The position numbers were made by a program, and so were the translations under genes. Positions 12,505-27,509 of a stretch of DNA of 64,000 nt are shown here, in pieces. Every line of letters starts with the position of its first letter. Within the stretch, counting starts at the first letter, position 1. This DNA is from Escherichia coli (lineage in GTDB: Bacteria; Pseudomonadota; Gammaproteobacteria; Enterobacterales; Enterobacteriaceae): assembly GCF_003334765.1 (NCBI RefSeq), contig NZ_QOWT01000002.1. One strand, written 5' to 3'. A model generated the notes under the pieces. It did not search any database, was not told the DNA's origin, and saw only the letters and a list, made by a program, of their open reading frames with translations.

Positions 12505-12605
12505 GTCGTTACCCTTTTTCAGGCAATAGTTGGCCCTGACCGAAGCGGCCAATTTTGTTTTTGTCGTTATTTACCAGAGAATTAATCCGGTTGATTATTC
12601 AACTA

Positions 12606-14044: not shown

Positions 14045-15268
14045 TTATCCCCGAATATCATGTATAAATTGACGTAACACGTTCTCTTTATCGAGCGTGC
14101 GTTCAGCATATTCACGTGCCACCGTGTTGTGTTTGGGCAGCAGGAGCGCCTGACGGATCCCCGCCACCAGCGCCTCGACCGATTCTGGTTCTACGCAAAC
14201 CGCAATTCCTGAGAAGGTTTCGCAAAGCTGCCCCAGTTCTGTGTGGGCTTCTGCGGTAATCACCGCGTTACCGCCTACCGCCAGAATATTGGTCAGTTTC
14301 GACGGCAATACGGCATCTGCCGCACCGCGTTTTTGCACCACCAGATGGCAATCGCCCATCTTCAGCAGTGCGGGTAAAGCGTCATACGATTGCAGCGGGA
14401 AAAATTGCATATTGCGCAGTCCGCGCTGCTGCGCCATTTTTTCCAGCCGCGCTTTGCCGCCGCCCTGCCCGACAATGGCAAAAATCAGCGGTTCATCGCG
14501 CAGGCGATCGGCAGCTTCAATAACGTTTTCCAGCCCCTGCTTTTCACCAATATTGCCGGAGTAAAGAATGATTTTTTTGTTATCCGGCAGGCCAAGTTGG
14601 TTACGAAGTGCAGCAACATCGGCGTCTGCGACATGCTGAAAACGGGCGATTTCCGACCAGTTGGGGAAGAAAATGACGTTTTCCGCCGCCACGCCTTTTT
14701 CAACGGCTTTATTCATCATCGAACGCGAAATCGTGGAGACGTTATCGACGTTATGCAGTCCGCTACGTTCGAAGGCTGTCGCCAGCTGTGCCACTTTGCC
14801 GCCTTTACCTTTTCCGGCAAGGCCCAGCCCCAGCATGGCATCTACTTCGTAATCCTGAATATGCAGCACGGTACGCGCACCAGAGAGTTTCGCCAGCAGG
14901 CGCATTCCCGGCGTGCAAAACAGCGTTGGTACTACGCCGATAATGCGATCCGGCTTCCAGCGACGTTGAGCCATCAGGGGAAAAAAACTGCTGGCGGCAA
15001 AGCTGCCGAGATGTAACAGGCGTTTCAGGGTGCTCGGCTGTTTTGGCACATACAGCGGGCAGCGCCACACCGTGGCGGCCCCCTCTTCTCGTTTGTACCG
15101 CCAGGCGGAATAGTTCTCGCCCACCTGCCACTGCGGGTAGTACGGCGGTGCGGTAATGACCCGCACCTCATGACCTTGTGCTGCCAGCCATTCCACCATC
15201 TCGCCGGTGTATTTGCCGATGCCGGTTAACTCCGGCGAGTAGTTAATGCCGTAGACCAGTATTTTCAT
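14045..15268 (-). CDS. wcaI: colanic acid glycosyltransferase WcaI
   Basis: 407-aa ORF; synteny. Confidence 0.9.
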
Positions 15269-15744
15269 AATCCGGGTACTCCGGCACGCTTCTCAGCGAG
15301 AAAATAGGCGCGGCTGTTAGCGTGAACATCGTCACTGGCGAGCAGCGCGTCCGGCGTCAGCCAGCGGTAATCGTCATGCTGCTCATCCGGCAGTAATAGT
15401 TCCTCTTCCGCGACTCTGAAGCGAAAACCGAGCACTACATAGTGCGTGGTGAAATCCGTGCCGGAGAAGTTATCGTCATAAAAGTGCTGCCAGACACCGT
15501 AAAACTGGCCCGCTGTCATCGGCAGACGCAGCCCCAGTTCCGCCATCGTCAGCCGCTCAAATGCGGCTTCCAGCGTTTCGTCCTTCTGCACGCGCCCTCC
15601 CGGCACAAACCAGTAACCCTGTGCCGGGCGGTTGGTTCTTTTGCCAAGCAGAAACTCGCCGCGGCTGTTCTCGACAATAAAGTCGAGAGAGACAAGCGGA
15701 GTGGAGCGCACTACCGTGGCAAAGTCTTCCTGACGTAAAAACAT
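15265..15744 (-). CDS. gmm: GDP-mannose mannosyl hydrolase (Nudix) Gmm/WcaH
   Basis: ORF 15265..15747 (MMFLRQ...); second Met is the likely start. Nudix box region [23 protein letters not shown]. Confidence 0.9.
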
Positions 15745-15746
15745 CA

Positions 15747-16712
15747 TTACCCCCGAAAGCGGTCTTGATTCTCAAGGAACCACTGGTAAGTGCTGGCAAG
15801 CCCCGCTTCCAGTGAGATTTCGTGATACCAGCCAAGCTGATGCAGGCGCGTCACATCCAGCAGTTTGCGCGGTGTGCCATCCGGTTTACTGGCATCGAAA
15901 ACCACCCGGCCTTTGTAACCCACCACTTTGGCGATGGTTTGCGCCAGCTCGCGGATAGTGCAGTCAACACCCGTGCCGACGTTAATGTGCGACAGCATCG
16001 GCTGGGTGTTCTCCAGCCAGACTTCGTGCGCCAGCTCCATGACATGAATGCTTGCCGCCGCCATATCATCGACATGCAGAAATTCGCGCATCGGCGTACC
16101 GCTGCCCCACACCACCACGTCCGGTGCATTCTGTGCTGTCGCCTCGTGGAAGCGGCGCAGCAATGCGGGGATCACATGCGAATTATTCGGATGGAAGTTG
16201 TCGTGCGGCCCGTACAGGTTGGTCGGCATGACAGAGCGATAATCGCATCCATACTGGCGGTTGTAAGATTCGCACAGTTTGATCCCGGCGATTTTGGCAA
16301 TGGCGTATGGCTCGTTGGTCGGCTCCAGCGTGCCCTGTAACAGCTCGCCTTCTGCCATCGGCTGTTTTGCCAGTTTTGGGTAGATGCAGGACGATCCGAG
16401 AAACAGCAGTTTGTTCACGTCGTTCTGATGCGCAGCGTGAATGATGTTGCTCTCAATCATCATGTTCTGGTAGATGAAATCCGCCGGATAGGTGTTGTTG
16501 GCAACAATGCCGCCCACTTTCGCCGCCGCCAGATAGACCTGGTCAATACGTTCGCTGGCAAAGAAATCATGCACGGCGCGGCTGTCCAGCAGGTTCAGCT
16601 CGTCGCGGGTGCGTAATACCAGTTCCACATCACCGCGCTGTTCGAGCTGCCGCCTGATGGCAGAACCGACCATCCCGCGATGGCCAGCGATAAAAATGCG
16701 TTGTTTACTCAT
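15747..16712 (-). CDS. fcl: GDP-L-fucose synthase Fcl (WcaG)
   Basis: 321-aa ORF; [12 protein letters not shown] Rossmann motif; synteny with gmd. Confidence 0.93.
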
Positions 16713-19183: not shown

Positions 19184-20401
19184 TTACCTCGTAATATTTA
19201 ACGCTTTTCGCAAAATAAACGGACAGACGATTAAAAATGCATATTCCGGGCTAAATATCGAACCGGTAAAAAACAGCGACACCGGAGTAAAAAGATATAA
19301 TTGCACGCGAAAATTGCGGTTATCACCAAAAGCGTTGATCATCATTTTTATCACTTTCCCCATGTACCACAGCGATAAAAACACTGCGAACCAGGAAAAA
19401 TAAATAATCAGCAGATACAAACCATTGTCTATGGTTTTTCCGACATCCGCACCGTTAAATATTCCGAATGATGCGACATATTCATAAAGTGAGCCAAATC
19501 TGACTACACCGTCAATATGGGTCAAAGAATAACCGACCATTACCAGCGGACCGACAATACGATAATACGATGACGATCCTTCCGTACCTAAATCGCCCAG
19601 ACGGGTGGAAATATAAGGAAACGCGATTACCACACCAACCAGGAATACAGCCAGAGAAATCAATGCTAACGGCAACTTTTTCTTAATCGCCTCTTTATTC
19701 AGATATTGAAATGCCCACTCCAGCAAATAAAACAGGATAAAGGTCATAACCCCTGAAAACGATCCGGATAATATTATCCCTGCGAGAATCATAGCATCGG
19801 TTTTAGGCGTTTTGATACCAAACTGTTTGATGCTGAGCCAAATTGAGATTAATGCCAGAGCGAAAAATGCCGGTTCGAAATAAAGTGCTGTCGTGCGCTT
19901 GCCGCCGAATTTAATGAAATTCAGCACATAGCTGTTGCTGTAAATCAGATATTTCGAAATCGACTCCATAATACTGCTGCCACCGGTGAGGATAATTTGC
20001 GCCATCTCCACTGCCGCCAGCGCCACCACCAGCCCGACCACCAGATAAAAGAAACGTAATATCTTGCGATGGTTGTGTGGCGAAATCGTTTTAAAGCGAA
20101 TACTCCACACCATGCCAATAATGATCACAATATAGACAAACAGCATGGTTGAAGTGACGTATTTACTGGCATCCAACGACTGACCAAACAGATAGTTGAA
20201 CGCCGTGAGTCCCGCACCAATCCCTAAGGCAATCATCAATTTTTTAACGCTGATGCGTTCTAAAAACAGCAGTAACAAGACAGGTAAAAAAGTGACGATA
20301 GTGATGGGGAAACTTTCACCAAGCTGGGCGATTTTGACGTTAACCAGCAGGTAGATCAGCGGCAGCAGCAGGTAGCTACAGATTCTGATAGAAGTTGACA
20401 T
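19184..20401 (-). CDS. wcaD: colanic acid polymerase WcaD
   Basis: ORF 19184..20473; start trimmed to ATG at 20401 ([19 protein letters not shown]) preceded by GGAGGAGT; polytopic membrane protein; start lies 26 nt inside wcaC 3' end. Confidence 0.88.
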
Positions 20402-21593
20402 ACTCCTCCAGCATCTGTTGTCCACTGTAGGCGGCGCGGCTGCGTTGGCTGAACTCAGCCAGCGTGGTACCAAATATCGCCTGCGCGATTTCCGGTTTGC
20501 TTAACTGCACCAGTTGCAGCACCTCTTCTTCACTGACGGTTTTACCACCGGATTTTTGCAGCACTTCCCGCGCCGCATCGCTATGGGTGGCGATCACCGG
20601 CACGCCAATCGATAGCGCCTCACACAAAATCAGCGGGTAGTTATCGACGCGAGAACTGAACACCAGCGCATCCATTTGATTGAGCGCGCTCATCAACTTG
20701 CGCTTGTCAGTTTCAAAGCCGTGATTAACCACGTTGCCAGCGGTGAACGGCGAGAACTTACCAAAGGTATGCAGTTCAATTTTGTCGCCCAGCGCCATCA
20801 TCTCACGCACCAGTTGCTGGTTAGTCTTGCCGTCGTAACGCAGGTCATGCGCCACCACCGCGATTTTCGGCTTGCCCTGGGTTTCGCGCACCGGAGGCAA
20901 GTCCGCCAGAATCGCTTCGGTTGCCATATCAATACCATTATTGATAATCCGGCAACGCCCTGGCCCGTACAGACTATTGAAAGCGTCAGCCACATGCTGG
21001 CTGGGGGAAATAAACTGACAGCCCAGCGCCAGCATCTCGCGGAATAACTGGCGTTTGCCCGCCACCAGCTGGTGCGCCCGATCAATCTTCACCGGCGGAT
21101 AGTTATTTAAGGTCGGGCATTTCTGGCAGCCCGTTTTCCAGCCTTCGCAACCGTCGGTAAAGGCGCAGCGTCCGGTAACGCTCCAGTGATCGTGCAGCGT
21201 CCAGACCAGAGTGGCGTCCGGTTTATGGTTTTTCACCTTTTCGCAAAAGCGCACCACGCTGTTAAGATTCAACCAGTAGCTGTGCAGCACATGAAAATGC
21301 AGGACCACCGGACCCGGTGTGCGAGTAATGGTGCGATATAACTCATTGAAATTGCCGAACAGATCGCGATTAAACAGACGAAACAGGGCAATGTTCGCCA
21401 TCGCGGTCATCCGCGGCGTATGTTTGATGACCTGCGGATAGTTTTGATGGCTGACGCTCTCTTTGCCGCCTTTGCCGTAACCGTAGACAAAATGTGACGC
21501 CAGCCCCTGTTGCAGCGCACGCTGGTGGAGATCTAACGCCACACCTGCTGCCCCGCCTTCCGCCAGTCGCACATTAAATTGCAAAATATTCAT
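20376..21593 (-). CDS. wcaC: colanic acid glycosyltransferase WcaC
   Basis: 405-aa ORF; synteny. Confidence 0.9.
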   Translation of the reverse strand: MNILQFNVRLAEGGAAGVALDLHQRALQQGLASHFVYGYGKGGKESVSHQNYPQVIKHTPRMTAMANIALFRLFNRDLFGNFNELYRTITRTPGPVVLHFHVLHSYWLNLNSVVRFCEKVKNHKPDATLVWTLHDHWSVTGRCAFTDGCEGWKTGCQKCPTLNNYPPVKIDRAHQLVAGKRQLFREMLALGCQFISPSQHVADAFNSLYGPGRCRIINNGIDMATEAILADLPPVRETQGKPKIAVVAHDLRYDGKTNQQLVREMMALGDKIELHTFGKFSPFTAGNVVNHGFETDKRKLMSALNQMDALVFSSRVDNYPLILCEALSIGVPVIATHSDAAREVLQKSGGKTVSEEEVLQLVQLSKPEIAQAIFGTTLAEFSQRSRAAYSGQQMLEEYVNFYQNL

Positions 21594-22920: not shown

Positions 22921-22983
22921 AGGTTGTTCTCCCGGAGTGTCGAGATGTTCTGCCGGTTTATAAGCTTGTTTACGGGTTCTGTT

Positions 22984-23087
22984 GCCGGATGCGGCGTGAG
23001 CGCCTTATCCGGCCTACGGAGCTGGTTTGCTTGCCGGATGCGGCGTGAAGGTAGGTCGGATAAGATGCGTCAGCATCGCATCCGACA
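22984..23087. repeat. REP/BIME-type palindromic units between wzc and wcaA
   Basis: Two copies of the GCCGGATGCGGCGTGA...CCTTATCCGGCCTAC-type REP motif (22984-23017 and 23033-23087) in the wzc-wcaA intergenic gap. Confidence 0.8.
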
Positions 23088-23097
23088 GCGGATGTCG

Positions 23098-25260
23098 TTA
23101 TTTCGCATCCGACTTATATTCGTATTCGTAATAGCCATAATCCTGATACGCGCTGGCGCGGCGGAAGATGGAGTTCAGAATCACCCCTTTCACCGGAATA
23201 CCGTTTTGCTCAAAGCGGCTCAGACTGGTTTCCACTTCTTTCAAGGTGTTGACCGCATAACGCGCCACCATTAACGTGGTTCCGACATGACGACCAACAA
23301 TTGCCGCATCGGTCACTGCCAGAATCGGCGGCGTATCAATCAACACCAGGTCATAGTTTTTACTCGCCCAGTTCACCAGTTCGGCAAAGCGTTCGCTCAT
23401 CAACAGTTCAGAAGGATTTGGCGGCACCTGACCGCGCGGGATCAGGTCAAATTTGGCAATAGAGGTCGGTTTAGCAGCGGTAGTAATATCGCCCTGACCA
23501 ATCAGAATTTCCGACAGGCCATTAACGTTATTAGTGCCCAGCAGCTCGTGGGTGTAGCCTTTGCGCATATCGCAGTCGATCAACAACACCCGTTTATTGG
23601 TCTGGCTGATCACCGCCGCCAGGTTGGCGCAGACAAAGGTTTTACCGATTGACGGGCTAACCCCGGTCATCATCAACACATTGTTCTGTGCCTGCATCAT
23701 CGCGAAGTGCAGACTGGTACGCAGACTGCGGATGGCTTCAATCGCCAGATCGGTTGGATTCCCCATCGCCAGTAGCTGGCTCTGTTTATAGCGTTTAATC
23801 CCTTTGATGGTTTTGACGCTATCGCGCGCTTTCTGCCATTCCGACAGCGGGATGCTGGCATAGACGCTGATACCGTGTTCTTCCAGCACCTGCGGGCTTT
23901 CGATGCCGCGATTAAACAACGAGCGCAGCAGCACACCCACGATAGAAAGCATCAGGCCAAGGATAATCGCGCCGAGGATAATCAGCCCTTTCTTCGGTTT
24001 CAGCACGCCAGGCTGGGTGATTGCCGGGTCAACAATGCGCACATCGCCGACGGTGCTGGCTTCGGTGATTTTCAGCTCCTGCTCTTTATTCAGCAGTTGC
24101 ATATAGACCTGCTGACCAGACTCGACATCGCGGGTCAGACGGACAATTTCCTGCTGGGTTTTCGGCATCGCCGTTACGCGACCATTAAGTTTGGCTTTTT
24201 CGTCTTCCAGCGCCTGACGTTTCTCCAGCAGCGTGCGGTACGCGGGGTGAACTTTGGTGTACAGCTTGGAGATTTCCGCCTCTTTAAAGGTCAGTTCGTT
24301 CAACTGCGCGTCGATGTTCACCATCGAATCGAGCACCGCTTTCGCTTCCAGCGGCAGATCAACAGAATCTTTATCCTGACGGAAGGCATTCAGTTTGTTT
24401 TCGGCAACATCGAGGCGGCTACGTACTTCCGGTAACTGTTGCGCGAGGAAAGCGAGGCTTTTCGACGCTTCCGCCGATTTGCGCTCAATATTTTGTTCCT
24501 GATAGTTACGGGCGATGCTGTTAAGAATGTCGCGGATCTGTTCGCGATCTTCACCGGTATAAGTCAGGCTCAGTACGCCTGCGTCTTTGCCGTTCTCCGT
24601 TACCGTCAGGCTGTTTTGCAGTTGGTTGATCATCCCCAACGTGGAGTATTTGGTGACGGTAAACTCACTGCCCGGGCGGGCGTGAATGGCTTCAACCATC
24701 AGCGTGACGCCTTCTTTTTTCAGCATCTGGCCCGCTTGCCCACGGGCGCTAAAGCCGCCATCACTGCTCAGAGTGTAGTTTTTGTCATCCAGCACATTAA
24801 GCGTAAACACCTGGTCCGCCATCTCTTTCGGGCGGTTAAAGGTGGTCACTTTCACCGTCTCGTTCTGACGTCCCATCAGGCGATCCCAACCCGCACCGAA
24901 AATCGGGAACGTGTTTTTGCTCACCGCAATATCGAGGTCTAGATCGTCCACCGTTTTACCAAGCACCAGACGCGAACGAATCAACTGGATCTCGGCGTCC
25001 GATGCAGGCGGTTTGTTGGCTAATGCCGAGCCAATGTCCTGCACTAACGAATTGCCGCTGTTTTGTTCGATTTGTACCAGTGCGTCGGCACTATAAATCG
25101 GCGTGGCGAAGAAAGTGTAAACCACAGCACAGAGGGCAAATACAGCGGTGATGCCAATCACCCACCAGCGCGCTTCAATGACGGTGCCGACCAGGCGACC
25201 AATATCGATTTCATCACTGCCCGTTACCGGAGCGGCATGTTGTTTTACTTTTTCTGTCAT
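23098..25260 (-). CDS. wzc: tyrosine autokinase / polysaccharide co-polymerase Wzc
   Basis: ORF 23098..25296; start trimmed to ATG at 25260 (MTEKVKQHAAPVTG). Walker A region GVSPSIGKT and C-terminal tyrosine-rich tail YQDYGYYEYEYKSDAK. Confidence 0.93.
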   Translation of the reverse strand: MTEKVKQHAAPVTGSDEIDIGRLVGTVIEARWWVIGITAVFALCAVVYTFFATPIYSADALVQIEQNSGNSLVQDIGSALANKPPASDAEIQLIRSRLVLGKTVDDLDLDIAVSKNTFPIFGAGWDRLMGRQNETVKVTTFNRPKEMADQVFTLNVLDDKNYTLSSDGGFSARGQAGQMLKKEGVTLMVEAIHARPGSEFTVTKYSTLGMINQLQNSLTVTENGKDAGVLSLTYTGEDREQIRDILNSIARNYQEQNIERKSAEASKSLAFLAQQLPEVRSRLDVAENKLNAFRQDKDSVDLPLEAKAVLDSMVNIDAQLNELTFKEAEISKLYTKVHPAYRTLLEKRQALEDEKAKLNGRVTAMPKTQQEIVRLTRDVESGQQVYMQLLNKEQELKITEASTVGDVRIVDPAITQPGVLKPKKGLIILGAIILGLMLSIVGVLLRSLFNRGIESPQVLEEHGISVYASIPLSEWQKARDSVKTIKGIKRYKQSQLLAMGNPTDLAIEAIRSLRTSLHFAMMQAQNNVLMMTGVSPSIGKTFVCANLAAVISQTNKRVLLIDCDMRKGYTHELLGTNNVNGLSEILIGQGDITTAAKPTSIAKFDLIPRGQVPPNPSELLMSERFAELVNWASKNYDLVLIDTPPILAVTDAAIVGRHVGTTLMVARYAVNTLKEVETSLSRFEQNGIPVKGVILNSIFRRASAYQDYGYYEYEYKSDAK

Positions 25261-25262
25261 TC

Positions 25263-25706
25263 TTATACCTGCTCTGCGTTCAATGCCTGCGCCCACTGGC
25301 GGGCAGACCGTTCAAGTAATGTGTACACCGCTGCAAACGTTTCCCGGCTTTTGCGATACGGATCGGGGATTTCACATTCGTTATCCCAGTGACCAAACAG
25401 CATCACTTTGCCGCGCATCTCAGGTGCCATCTCGCATAAGCGTTCGATATGGCGCTTTTCCATGGTCAAAATCAGGTCATAGTTGCGACACAGGCGGCGG
25501 CTGATTTGCCGTGCACAGTGACCTTCCAGAGACAGTTGATGTTCTGCGGCGACGCTGATAGCGGTAGGATTAGCGCCCTTACCGACCAGCGCGCCGAGTC
25601 CAGCGGACTCCACTTTCAGCTCCGGGTGATAACGTTGCAGTAAGCGTTCCGCCGTCGGGGAACGGCAAATATTGCCGACACAGACAACTAAGATGTTGTT
25701 AAACAT
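25263..25706 (-). CDS. wzb: low-molecular-weight protein-tyrosine phosphatase Wzb
   Basis: 147-aa ORF; active-site motif CVGNICRSP near N-terminus. Confidence 0.95.
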   Translation of the reverse strand: MFNNILVVCVGNICRSPTAERLLQRYHPELKVESAGLGALVGKGANPTAISVAAEHQLSLEGHCARQISRRLCRNYDLILTMEKRHIERLCEMAPEMRGKVMLFGHWDNECEIPDPYRKSRETFAAVYTLLERSARQWAQALNAEQV

Positions 25707-25711
25707 GACGA

Positions 25712-26851
25712 TTACCAGTTATGAATGTCGCTGGCTGTATCCGTCATGTAACGGACACCGCTAATAGTTGGCAGCAACTGATTGATCAGACGGTTCCAGC
25801 GGGAAACCGGGGCGGTGGTGACATACACCACGTCATAAGGTTGCAGGCGGAATTCTGTCGCCATCACCAGCGACGTCGCATCGGACATATCCAGCTGGTA
25901 GATATTGGCAATCTTGCCGTTACGCCCGCCCTCGCCTTTCAGCGGACGAATGACAAAGATGCCGCTGGCGTTGGAGGTGGTCATGTCGATACCTTCGGCA
26001 TTGCCCAGGGCTTCAGTCAGGGTCATGCCGCTAAAGTCCATTTTCAGGGTGCTCTGTTTCTTCACTTCACCCATCACAAACACTTTCAGATCATCATTAC
26101 GCGGCACGTAGAGAATATCGCCGGGGTAAAGCAGTCGGTTCTGATTGAGGTCGCCGTTTTGCATCAGCGCCTGCAAAGAAATGCGTTCTTCACGACCATT
26201 GTGTGTTAGCACCACGTTGCGCCAGTCAGCGGTGTCGGTCAGGCCACCTGCGGCGTTGATGGCGTCGAGAATGGTCAGTGGTACGTTGGTGATCGCCTGT
26301 TGACCGGATTTATTCACCTGACCTGAGATATAGGCCTTTTGCGAGCGGAAGGCGGCGATATTAACATCCACCTGCGGGTCAGCGATGTACGTCGCTAAGC
26401 GCCCGGTAATATCACTGCGGATTTCAGCGAGCGTTTTCCCGACTACGTGGACCTTGCCGATATACGGGTAAAACATAGTGCCGTCAGGCTGTACCCAGTT
26501 GCCGGTGTCGCTGGAGCTGCGGTACTGACCGGCTGGCGTGGTGAGTTCCGGGTGATCCCAGACGGTGACATTCAGAACGTCGCCCGGCCCGACGCGATAC
26601 TGGTAATTCGCGATCTCACTTTCCAGCGTCATATTGGGGCGCGCTACATTCGGGCGTGGGCGTAATTGGTCAATCAGGCGCGGGGTCAGCGGATAAACAT
26701 TCACCATTTTGTCGAGATCGAAATCAGCGTCCTGCTGTTTGATGACGTCTTTGCCCATCGTCGACATATTGCTGCCCGGAAGTACTGTGCAACCGCTTAT
26801 CAAGGTTACTGACACCAATAATGGCATCAATTTCATTTTGGATTTCATCAT
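25712..26851 (-). CDS. wza: outer membrane polysaccharide export lipoprotein Wza
   Basis: 379-aa ORF; signal peptide with lipobox LISGC; first gene of cps operon. Confidence 0.93.
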
Positions 26852-27029: not shown

Positions 27030-27041
27030 CACGCTACCGCC
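27030..27041 (-). promoter_or_regulatory. ops element (GGCGGTAGCGTG) in the cps/wza leader (JUMPstart)
   Basis: Plus strand CACGCTACCGCC; same 12-mer and similar flank (ACACGCTACCGCCCCTGGCTTTTT) as the copy at 1670..1681; about 180 nt upstream of the wza start codon. Confidence 0.75.
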
Positions 27042-27509
27042 CCTGGCTTTTTAGCTACCAATACACTGATTTAGCTTAATTTTTCAAACCCTCTCTGCAT
27101 ACAATCGTTGATGAGAAAGGGTTATTGCGGAAATTAACTTCCGAATATAAGGTGACATTATGGTAATTGAATATTGGCTCTCCAATAATGCAGGAGGAAG
27201 TGTTACAGCTAACGGAATAGCAGGCAAGGTAACAATTCGGCAATTGGCTATTTTTAAGAATTATATTAAGTGTCATTCAATATGGTTTTTAGGAGTTTCT
27301 TTAGGTTGACAATATTTAATATTGCGTCTCCACATGCGATATTTCTTAAATAATGTTTTATTATTACCACTTTTAATTCAGGGATAATGTGAGGTTATTA
27401 CCCTCAAATAATATGAGATAAATAGTGCTGCAACATTGCATTTTTGCCCCGATTTATCCATGATCGAATTGTGACATTTGTCATACAACGAATAGGTTTT
27501 GTACTTACT

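Follow-up and report, generated by a model that had tools for sequence, protein, structure and literature searches.

In the colanic acid operon of Escherichia coli, the wcaD start codon is annotated inside the 3′ end of wcaC, and this locus raises the question of whether one stretch of DNA truly encodes both the end of a glycosyltransferase and the beginning of a polymerase and, if it does, whether the two proteins are made independently of each other. Here, we analyse this junction together with 25 other gene junctions in a 64,000-nt stretch of E. coli DNA (NCBI RefSeq contig NZ_QOWT01000002.1; hereafter the window). We find that positions 20376–20401 genuinely code for both proteins at once. 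The wcaC and wcaD coordinates and their overlap are already in the RefSeq/PGAP annotation; new here are the invariance of the junction across genera, the synonymous sites that are frozen where wcaC covers the wcaD Shine-Dalgarno sequence, and a predicted hairpin that is plausible but unverifiable.

The window is a segment of a non-K-12 E. coli chromosome that carries the colanic acid (wca) cluster, yegL–pphC(yegK)–yegI and mdtABCD–baeSR. From the end of an O-antigen cluster, it passes galF and gne and enters the colanic acid cluster, which occupies the minus strand from wza at 26851 down to wcaM at 4231 in the canonical order (wza-wzb-wzc-wcaABCDEF-gmd-fcl-gmm-wcaI-cpsBG-wcaJ-wzxC-wcaKLM) and is preceded by an upstream JUMPstart element (27030–27068, minus strand). 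After the cluster come yegH, asmA, dcd, udk, dgcE, alkA, yegD and the minus-strand genes yegI–pphC(yegK)–yegL, followed farther along the window by the ibs/sib region, mdtABCD–baeSR on the plus strand, yegPQRS and the gat operon. In a megablast search of complete E. coli genomes, no record was 100% identical over the full window: strains H3 and HSP425 agree with the right half at 99.9% identity, and the closest match to the left half reaches 98.7%. Each of the 31 genes examined is intact and keeps its annotated start and stop. The two genes at the focus of this work are wcaC (20376–21593, minus strand), which encodes a 405-residue colanic acid GT4 glycosyltransferase as identified by its RefSeq neighbours and NCBIfam model TIGR04015 (897 bits against a cut-off of 785, aligned over 1–405 of 405 positions), and wcaD (19184–20401, minus strand), which encodes the Wzy-type colanic acid polymerase, also of 405 residues, as identified by TIGR04010 (873 bits against a cut-off of 590, aligned over 1–404 of 404). 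A comparison of yegL–pphC–yegI with the PADLOC defence families returned weak kinase-domain matches and nothing else.

Tight packing is the rule at the 26 gene pairs that make up the wca, yegL–pphC–yegI and mdt–bae operons of the window: nine junctions overlap (seven by 4 nt, one by 1 nt and one, wcaC>wcaD, by 26 nt) and 17 have a spacing at or below +2. The 4-nt overlaps are ATGA at wcaB/wcaC (21590–21593), gmm/wcaI (15265–15268), wcaK/wcaL (6853–6856) and pphC/yegI (40511–40514), and GTGA, which provides a GTG start, at yegL/pphC(yegK) (41269–41272), all on the minus strand, together with ATGA at mdtD/baeS (52004–52007) and baeS/baeR (53404–53407) on the plus strand. In K-12, yegJ is inserted at the pphC/yegI junction. 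The 1-nt overlap is the TGATG of mdtA/mdtB (44389–44393, plus strand). Two junctions abut at spacing 0 and stay in the same reading frame, namely mdtB/mdtC (TAAGTG, with a GTG start; 47511–47516) and mdtC/mdtD (TAAATG; 50589–50594), both on the plus strand; wcaJ>wzxC is spaced by +1. A +2 spacing is found at wzb/wzc (TAAGAATG; 25258–25265, minus strand), wcaA>wcaB, gmd>fcl, fcl/gmm and wcaI>cpsB. At fcl/gmm, the sequence TAATGATG (15742–15749, minus strand) holds tandem ATGs, and the spacing is +2 with the RefSeq/NCBIfam start and -1 only if the first of the tandem ATGs is used. The remaining junctions are spaced by +5 to +26 (five junctions) or by 54–177 nt (four junctions).

The first-pass annotation of this DNA had proposed a 26-nt wcaC/wcaD overlap, which we find to be exact at 20376–20401 and to be annotated in the same way by RefSeq in the closest genomes. 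Its accompanying list of neighbours with shared or overlapping stop and start codons was mostly right. The list stands for wcaK/wcaL, wcaB/wcaC, yegL/pphC, pphC/yegI, mdtD/baeS and baeS/baeR (-4 in each case) and for mdtA/mdtB (-1); it fails for wzb/wzc (+2), for fcl/gmm (+2 under the RefSeq start) and for mdtB/mdtC and mdtC/mdtD, which abut at 0; and it left out gmm/wcaI (-4). The description of these junctions as expected operon architecture was correct, spacings of -4, -1, 0, +1 and +2 being standard tight packing. Co-directional overlaps account for roughly 15% of gene pairs in most prokaryotic groups (PMC6728339), and the enriched spacing classes are -4, -1 and -8, with the remaining overlap lengths disfavoured (PMC12548453). 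Touching and overlapping neighbours of this kind are routine and already annotated.

We also agree with the earlier claim that start-codon calls matter at such junctions. The three starts that had been queried, the GTG of yegK, the GTG of mdtC and the ATG of yegI, are well supported by homology. The GTG of pphC (yegK) is the first possible start in its open reading frame, and the N terminus that follows from it, M(S/T)WRLVY..VGTSH with an invariant W3, is conserved in 253-residue homologues from Serratia, Klebsiella, Piscinibacter and Magnetococcus. All three distant cassettes compared (Serratia, Piscinibacter and Magnetococcus) carry an identical GTGA where pphC meets the upstream vWA gene. 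The yegI ATG aligns with the initiator methionine of distant homologues (M..TLYT..G), and the pphC/yegI junction in the distant cassettes is a spacer of +6 to +8, in contrast to the -4 overlap in E. coli. The mdtC GTG directly follows the in-frame mdtB TAA and is the only start that keeps the RND N terminus; the protein matches its equivalog model from the first position and the generic RND permease model from the second. MdtB, MdtD, BaeS, Wzc and Gmm all align from profile position 1, Wzc over 1–720 of the 720 positions of NF008568 and Gmm over 1–159 of the 159 positions of NF011963.

At the wcaC/wcaD junction, the wcaD ATG occupies 20401–20399 and the wcaC TAG occupies 20378–20376 on the minus strand, and the two open reading frames therefore share the 26 nt from 20376 to 20401. 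Read in the wcaC frame, the overlap comprises the last eight sense codons and the stop (...V N F Y Q N L *); read in the wcaD frame, which is +1 relative to wcaC and thus one base out of register, it comprises codons 1–9 (M S T S I R I C S). The wcaD Shine-Dalgarno sequence, GGAGG (20405–20409, minus strand; -8 to -4 from the ATG), also lies inside wcaC, so that the start codon is placed 26 nt and the GGAGG 30–34 nt before the wcaC end. The spacing between GGAGG and AUG is short (3 nt), and the predicted duplex with the anti-Shine-Dalgarno sequence (-9.3 kcal/mol) is that of a strong Shine-Dalgarno sequence. The wcaC and wcaD genes are adjacent, point the same way and belong to one transcription unit, as judged from the RefSeq annotation of the closest genomes and from the lack of an intervening promoter-like or terminator-like site; no such site was found within 500 nt on either side of the junction, and no opposite-strand open reading frame crosses the overlap. 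An 81-nt stretch spanning the junction is present at 95% identity or more in 4,737 of 5,426 complete E. coli genomes, and the annotation assigns it to both genes.

An overlap of this length could be an annotation artefact, with the true wcaD start elsewhere, either at an upstream TTG (20473) or at a downstream codon. The longest wcaD open reading frame does begin at TTG 20473, and some long overlaps in prokaryotic annotations are mispredictions, but the remaining evidence makes this explanation very improbable. WcaD homologues from many genera are 405–407 residues long, and their residues 1–11 are nearly invariant, with M1, S2, S4, I5, C8, S9, Y10 and L11 strictly so. The start codon is ATG in 81 of 81 aligned sequences and is preceded by the conserved Shine-Dalgarno sequence. 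Downstream, wcaD codons 2–41 of the window contain no in-frame ATG, GTG or TTG, and upstream the in-frame starts and stops vary by species, two species having no upstream start at all and one of these carrying a stop at -42. As candidates, then, TTG 20473 and the other alternative starts were rejected, the upstream ones not being conserved and none existing downstream before codon 42. Alignments of WcaC and of WcaD to the curated NCBIfam models run from end to end. Together, the invariant N terminus, the identical geometry across species described below, the lack of an alternative start and the full-length NCBIfam alignments essentially exclude a misannotated wcaD start.

To follow the junction across the family, one genome per species was scanned, which gave 80 loci from 23 other named Enterobacteriaceae genera; the 80 loci assessed are the window and 79 of those fetched, one fetched contig being too short upstream. 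The -26 overlap, the wcaD ATG and the wcaC TAG are identical in 80 of 80 assessed loci, as compared with 75 of 76 for the -4 overlap of wcaB>wcaC. Spacer junctions drift by species: wcaA>wcaB is -1, 0 or +2, the commonest values for wcaD>wcaE range from -1 to +16, and wcaE>wcaF ranges from +9 to +53. A junction is immovable once its two genes share bases. The genes of the nearest WcaD outgroups (46% and 31% identity) follow different upstream genes, which they overlap by 14 nt and 4 nt, and the -26 arrangement is thus specific to the canonical colanic acid cluster. These distant relatives could not be aligned at the junction and were set aside as a source of covariation.

The nucleotide sequence of the junction forms a sharp island of conservation. 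Across the 81 sequences, mean entropy is 0.07, 0.06 and 0.23 bits at offsets -15 to -1, 0 to 14 and 15 to 29 from the wcaD ATG, as against 0.4–1.1 bits outside the junction. Inside the overlap, the third codon positions of one gene are first or second positions of the other and nearly all are fixed; wcaD third positions vary again right after the wcaC stop, at +26, +29, +32 and onward. The codons of WcaD that contain the wcaC stop are similarly restricted, Cys8 being always TGT and never TGC (81 of 81) and Ser9 always AGY, a choice by which the wcaC TAG is created and kept in place. Upstream of the overlap, all five bases of GGAGG are invariant in 81 of 81 sequences, including two wcaC third-codon positions. 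We compared columns with an invariant amino acid and degenerate codons: within the 18 nt upstream of the wcaD ATG, three of three such columns use a single codon in all 81 sequences (CAG, CTG and GAG), as against none of 14 in the wcaC flank and 5 of 91 in the wcaD flank, rates at which three frozen codons in succession would be very unlikely by chance (about 1e-4). Two of the frozen synonymous sites fall within GGAGG, and the third, at -14, pairs with +20 in a predicted stem. Just beyond the Shine-Dalgarno core, the wcaC third position at -2 is free to be A or G.

This stem belongs to a predicted 15-bp hairpin (20378–20418, minus strand) in which offsets -17 to -1 pair with +7 to +23, so that the stem would contain the Shine-Dalgarno sequence, the loop would hold the AUG and the 3′ arm would end on the U of the wcaC UAG. 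For the window, the predicted energy is -16.7 kcal/mol (z = -3.8 relative to shuffled sequences), and folding of the junction from five further species gave the hairpin each time (-12 to -15 kcal/mol). The translation initiation region of wcaD (-35 to +35; -22.1 kcal/mol) is predicted to be among the most stable of the 29 in the window. Over the 81 sequences, pairing is kept in 98.6% of cells, and the commonest polymorphisms, G/A at -2 and A/G at +18, both preserve pairing with U. However, the stability of the hairpin reaches only the top 3.7% of 45-nt windows in the 22.6-kb wca mRNA, in which 78 sites are at least as stable, and we therefore rejected stability alone as evidence for the hairpin. 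No compensatory change occurs in the stem among the 81 sequences, so that covariation neither confirms nor refutes the structure, and its invariance is largely explained by double coding and the Shine-Dalgarno sequence. Given the zero covariation, the ordinary stability and the double-coding constraint, the hairpin is a reasonable hypothesis, not a finding.

How might this arrangement affect translation of wcaD? Termination on wcaC takes place 23 nt downstream of the wcaD AUG, and ribosomes elongating on wcaC have to travel over the Shine-Dalgarno sequence and AUG of wcaD, blocking both as they pass, which makes some interaction between the two translation events unavoidable. On the basis of the geometry, starts, conservation, Shine-Dalgarno sequence and frozen sites observed here, we infer that WcaD synthesis is probably coupled to wcaC translation across the dual-coding overlap, and with it any role that the hairpin may have. 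In the mechanism that we propose, ribosomes finishing wcaC would unwind the hairpin that otherwise hides the wcaD Shine-Dalgarno sequence. The terminating ribosome could then return to the Shine-Dalgarno sequence and AUG, a backward step of about 23 nt, or else a free 30S subunit could bind while the wcaD site is open; unfolding of the binding site and back-movement of the ribosome may both operate. There are established examples, from phage and E. coli, of coupling at overlaps of -38 and -50 nt and of coupling that works through RNA unfolding (PMC12548453). RRF-depletion data, which speak against scanning models in general (reviewed in PMC12548453), count against the proposal, as does the short spacing between GGAGG and AUG. 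Termination–reinitiation coupling has been demonstrated for tight packing in other E. coli gene pairs. A literature search found no experiment on the coupling of the genes studied here and no usable start-site data (retapamulin/Onc112 profiling or N-terminal proteomics) for them; the wca genes are barely expressed in standard laboratory conditions.

The main rival to coupling is that wcaD is translated independently from its own strong Shine-Dalgarno sequence and that the overlap is an accident of history that has been frozen in place, since a change at any position would harm both proteins. We consider this less likely than coupling, although several observations agree with it. A Shine-Dalgarno duplex as strong as the one given above could serve independent initiation just as well; near-invariance of the 26 nt is what double coding by itself would produce; the hairpin lacks covariation and is unexceptional in stability; and the distant WcaD relatives overlap other upstream genes by 14 nt and 4 nt. 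Set against independent initiation are the frozen synonymous sites that lie in neither the overlap nor the Shine-Dalgarno core (-14 and, partly, -17), the unavoidable passage of wcaC ribosomes over the wcaD initiation site and the predicted base pairing of the Shine-Dalgarno sequence in free mRNA. The frozen sites bear as well on a more elaborate form of coupling, in which the 41-nt junction (20378–20418) would be a dedicated, family-wide RNA element, its hairpin hiding the Shine-Dalgarno sequence over the dual-coding segment such that WcaD is made only by, or just after, ribosomes completing WcaC. This proposal is offered tentatively, as a possibility that we do not favour. If true, it would account for the lack of synonymous variation beyond the overlap and the Shine-Dalgarno core in about 24 genera, and it would mean that a low polymerase-to-glycosyltransferase ratio is fixed by the junction.

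A different use of the overlap would be a programmed +1 frameshift that yields a WcaC–WcaD fusion protein. The +1 frame of wcaD relative to wcaC and the wcaC stop, a rare UAG followed by C, would fit such an event, but the site offers no slippery codon: in CUG UAG C, the tRNA-Leu cannot re-pair on the +1 codon UGU. In prfB, about 3 nt separate the Shine-Dalgarno sequence from the shift site that follows it, as opposed to about 26–27 nt between GGAGG and the UAG here, and the WcaD ATG and first eight codons are conserved as an independent N terminus. A prfB-like fusion is accordingly excluded by the sequence, with no codon for re-pairing and a Shine-Dalgarno sequence that is too distant, and we regard frameshifting at this junction as extremely unlikely.

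Comparison with known coupled systems places the overlapping junctions of the three operons in two groups. The eight short overlaps (seven -4 and one -1) resemble the ATGA and TGATG pairs for which coupling was studied (Huber et al. 2019, PMC6728339; Huber et al. 2023, PMC10666635), 13 of 14 tested -4/-1 pairs having proved strictly coupled (PMC6728339). Like those pairs, they are co-directional and lie within operons, and wcaL, baeS and mdtB have intragenic Shine-Dalgarno sequences; unlike them, yegI, baeR and pphC have weak or absent Shine-Dalgarno sequences. Coupling at the junctions of these operons is thus plausible as read from their geometry and agrees with the published -4/-1 pairs. 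The wcaC/wcaD overlap, by contrast, is far longer than the tested ATGA/TGATG class, and its closer parallels are the coat–lysis junctions of the RNA phages fr (-38 nt) and MS2 (-50 nt), in which the downstream start also lies tens of nucleotides before the upstream stop (PMC12548453). RNA structure surrounds the downstream ribosome-binding site in those phages, and either back-movement or a window of unfolding is invoked, as in our proposal for wcaD; wcaC/wcaD differs from them in being part of a chromosomal biosynthetic operon, in the length of its overlap (26 nt) and in the strong wcaD Shine-Dalgarno sequence. The E. coli rpmI–rplT pair, in which a structure that sequesters the Shine-Dalgarno sequence is melted by upstream translation (PMC12548453), is a further parallel to the predicted wcaD hairpin. 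The rpmI and rplT genes are, however, 52 nt apart (+52), and their structure is experimentally validated, whereas that of wcaC/wcaD is predicted only.

These results have practical consequences for work on the three operons. For wcaD, pphC, yegI and mdtC, the start codons as called are reliable. Deletions or insertions in wcaC must spare at least its last ~45 nt (up to 20418), since their loss would remove the wcaD start codon, its Shine-Dalgarno sequence and the possible coupling structure; the same caution applies at the ATGA and GTGA junctions when non-polar mutants are made or the operons are refactored. The wcaC/wcaD junction is otherwise ordinary and opens no new question, but it is a clean textbook case of a dual-coding segment that has been frozen throughout the history of the colanic acid cluster, and it may offer a clue to how the amount of a Wzy-type polymerase is linked to the glycosyltransferase encoded upstream.

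At window positions 20394–20396, within the 26-nt wcaC/wcaD overlap, E. coli differs from its relatives by three adjacent changes, reading TCAACT in contrast to the TCTCGT found in most of 80 other species. The changes substitute N for S in WcaC and T for R in WcaD, and extend the predicted stem at the junction by 3 bp, with a predicted folding energy of −16.7 versus −12.4 kcal/mol. In the closest outgroups of WcaD, at 46% and 31% identity, the gene likewise overlaps the one upstream, by 14 nt and 4 nt, respectively (L088 2770–5203 and L089 1–2354), but the overlapped partners are different genes that do not encode WcaC. The contig L026 (CACSKA010000001.1) is labelled 'Chryseobacterium sp. 18061', yet its wca locus is Citrobacter-like. 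Of the 58 nt surrounding the junction, only one, a C for T at −23, distinguishes it from L023, a Citrobacter isolate from the same project, and the L026 assembly is probably mislabelled or contaminated.

The minus strand carries two JUMPstart elements, one preceding the O-antigen cluster (1670–1708) and one preceding wza, with which the colanic acid operon opens (27030–27068), and the 101-nt cpsB–cpsG spacer contains an Rfam algC RNA motif (12509–12558, minus strand, 77 bits) immediately 5′ of the phosphomannomutase gene. The 177-nt wzc–wcaA spacer (22921–23097) contains REP/BIME-type palindromes, has a local folding energy of −22.2 kcal/mol and is roughly 50 nt longer than in the genome that best matches the left half of the window. 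Elsewhere, three tandem Sib antitoxin RNAs, antisense to ibs toxin ORFs and with a period of roughly 328 nt, occupy 42075–42880, compared with two (sibA and sibB) in K-12, and the small RNA CyaR/RyeE lies between yegQ and yegR (56240–56325, plus strand). Between galF and wcaM lies a gne-type 4-epimerase gene (3078–4073, minus strand), whose product the closest genome's annotation names N-acetyl-alpha-D-glucosaminyl-diphospho-ditrans,octacis-undecaprenol 4-epimerase. This gene is not known to occur in K-12, which would mark the region as a non-K-12 O-antigen region.

The dgcE (yegE) gene (32874–36180) is interrupted and reads as two ORFs, one of 759 and one of 374 amino acids, whereas strain H3 has an intact gene encoding 1,105 amino acids. 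The sole difference between the two is an 11-bp deletion (GCGCCGGGCAT) in the window after about position 35061, flanked by short direct repeats. The deletion falls within the GGDEF domain and makes dgcE in the window a frameshifted pseudogene. Strain HSP425 carries a different dgcE frameshift, of +2 bp.

The yegL–pphC–yegI genes (38574–41928) encode a vWA protein, a PP2C phosphatase and a Ser/Thr kinase. In K-12 MG1655 (L087 5040–8473), an insertion of roughly 785 nt bearing the divergent gene yegJ separates pphC from yegI, altering the last two residues of PphC and the first 15 or so of YegI, which in K-12 has 648 amino acids. The window lacks yegJ and has an ATGA overlap in its place (40511–40514); the pphC/yegI junction therefore varies among strains. 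The three-gene cassette also occurs, at roughly 60–65% identity, in Serratia, Piscinibacter and Magnetococcus (L084, L085 and L086, respectively; 3501–4262 in each), adjoining an integrase and IS66 in Serratia and BrxR/WYL and McrA-like genes in Piscinibacter. This distribution suggests that yegL–pphC–yegI is a mobile module that may have links to defence islands; the cassette is absent from PADLOC v2.

Further along the window, mdtB, mdtC and mdtD share one reading frame, with a single TAA between each pair of neighbours (TAAGTG at 47511–47516 and TAAATG at 50589–50594), such that readthrough of these codons would join MdtB, MdtC and MdtD as a fusion.
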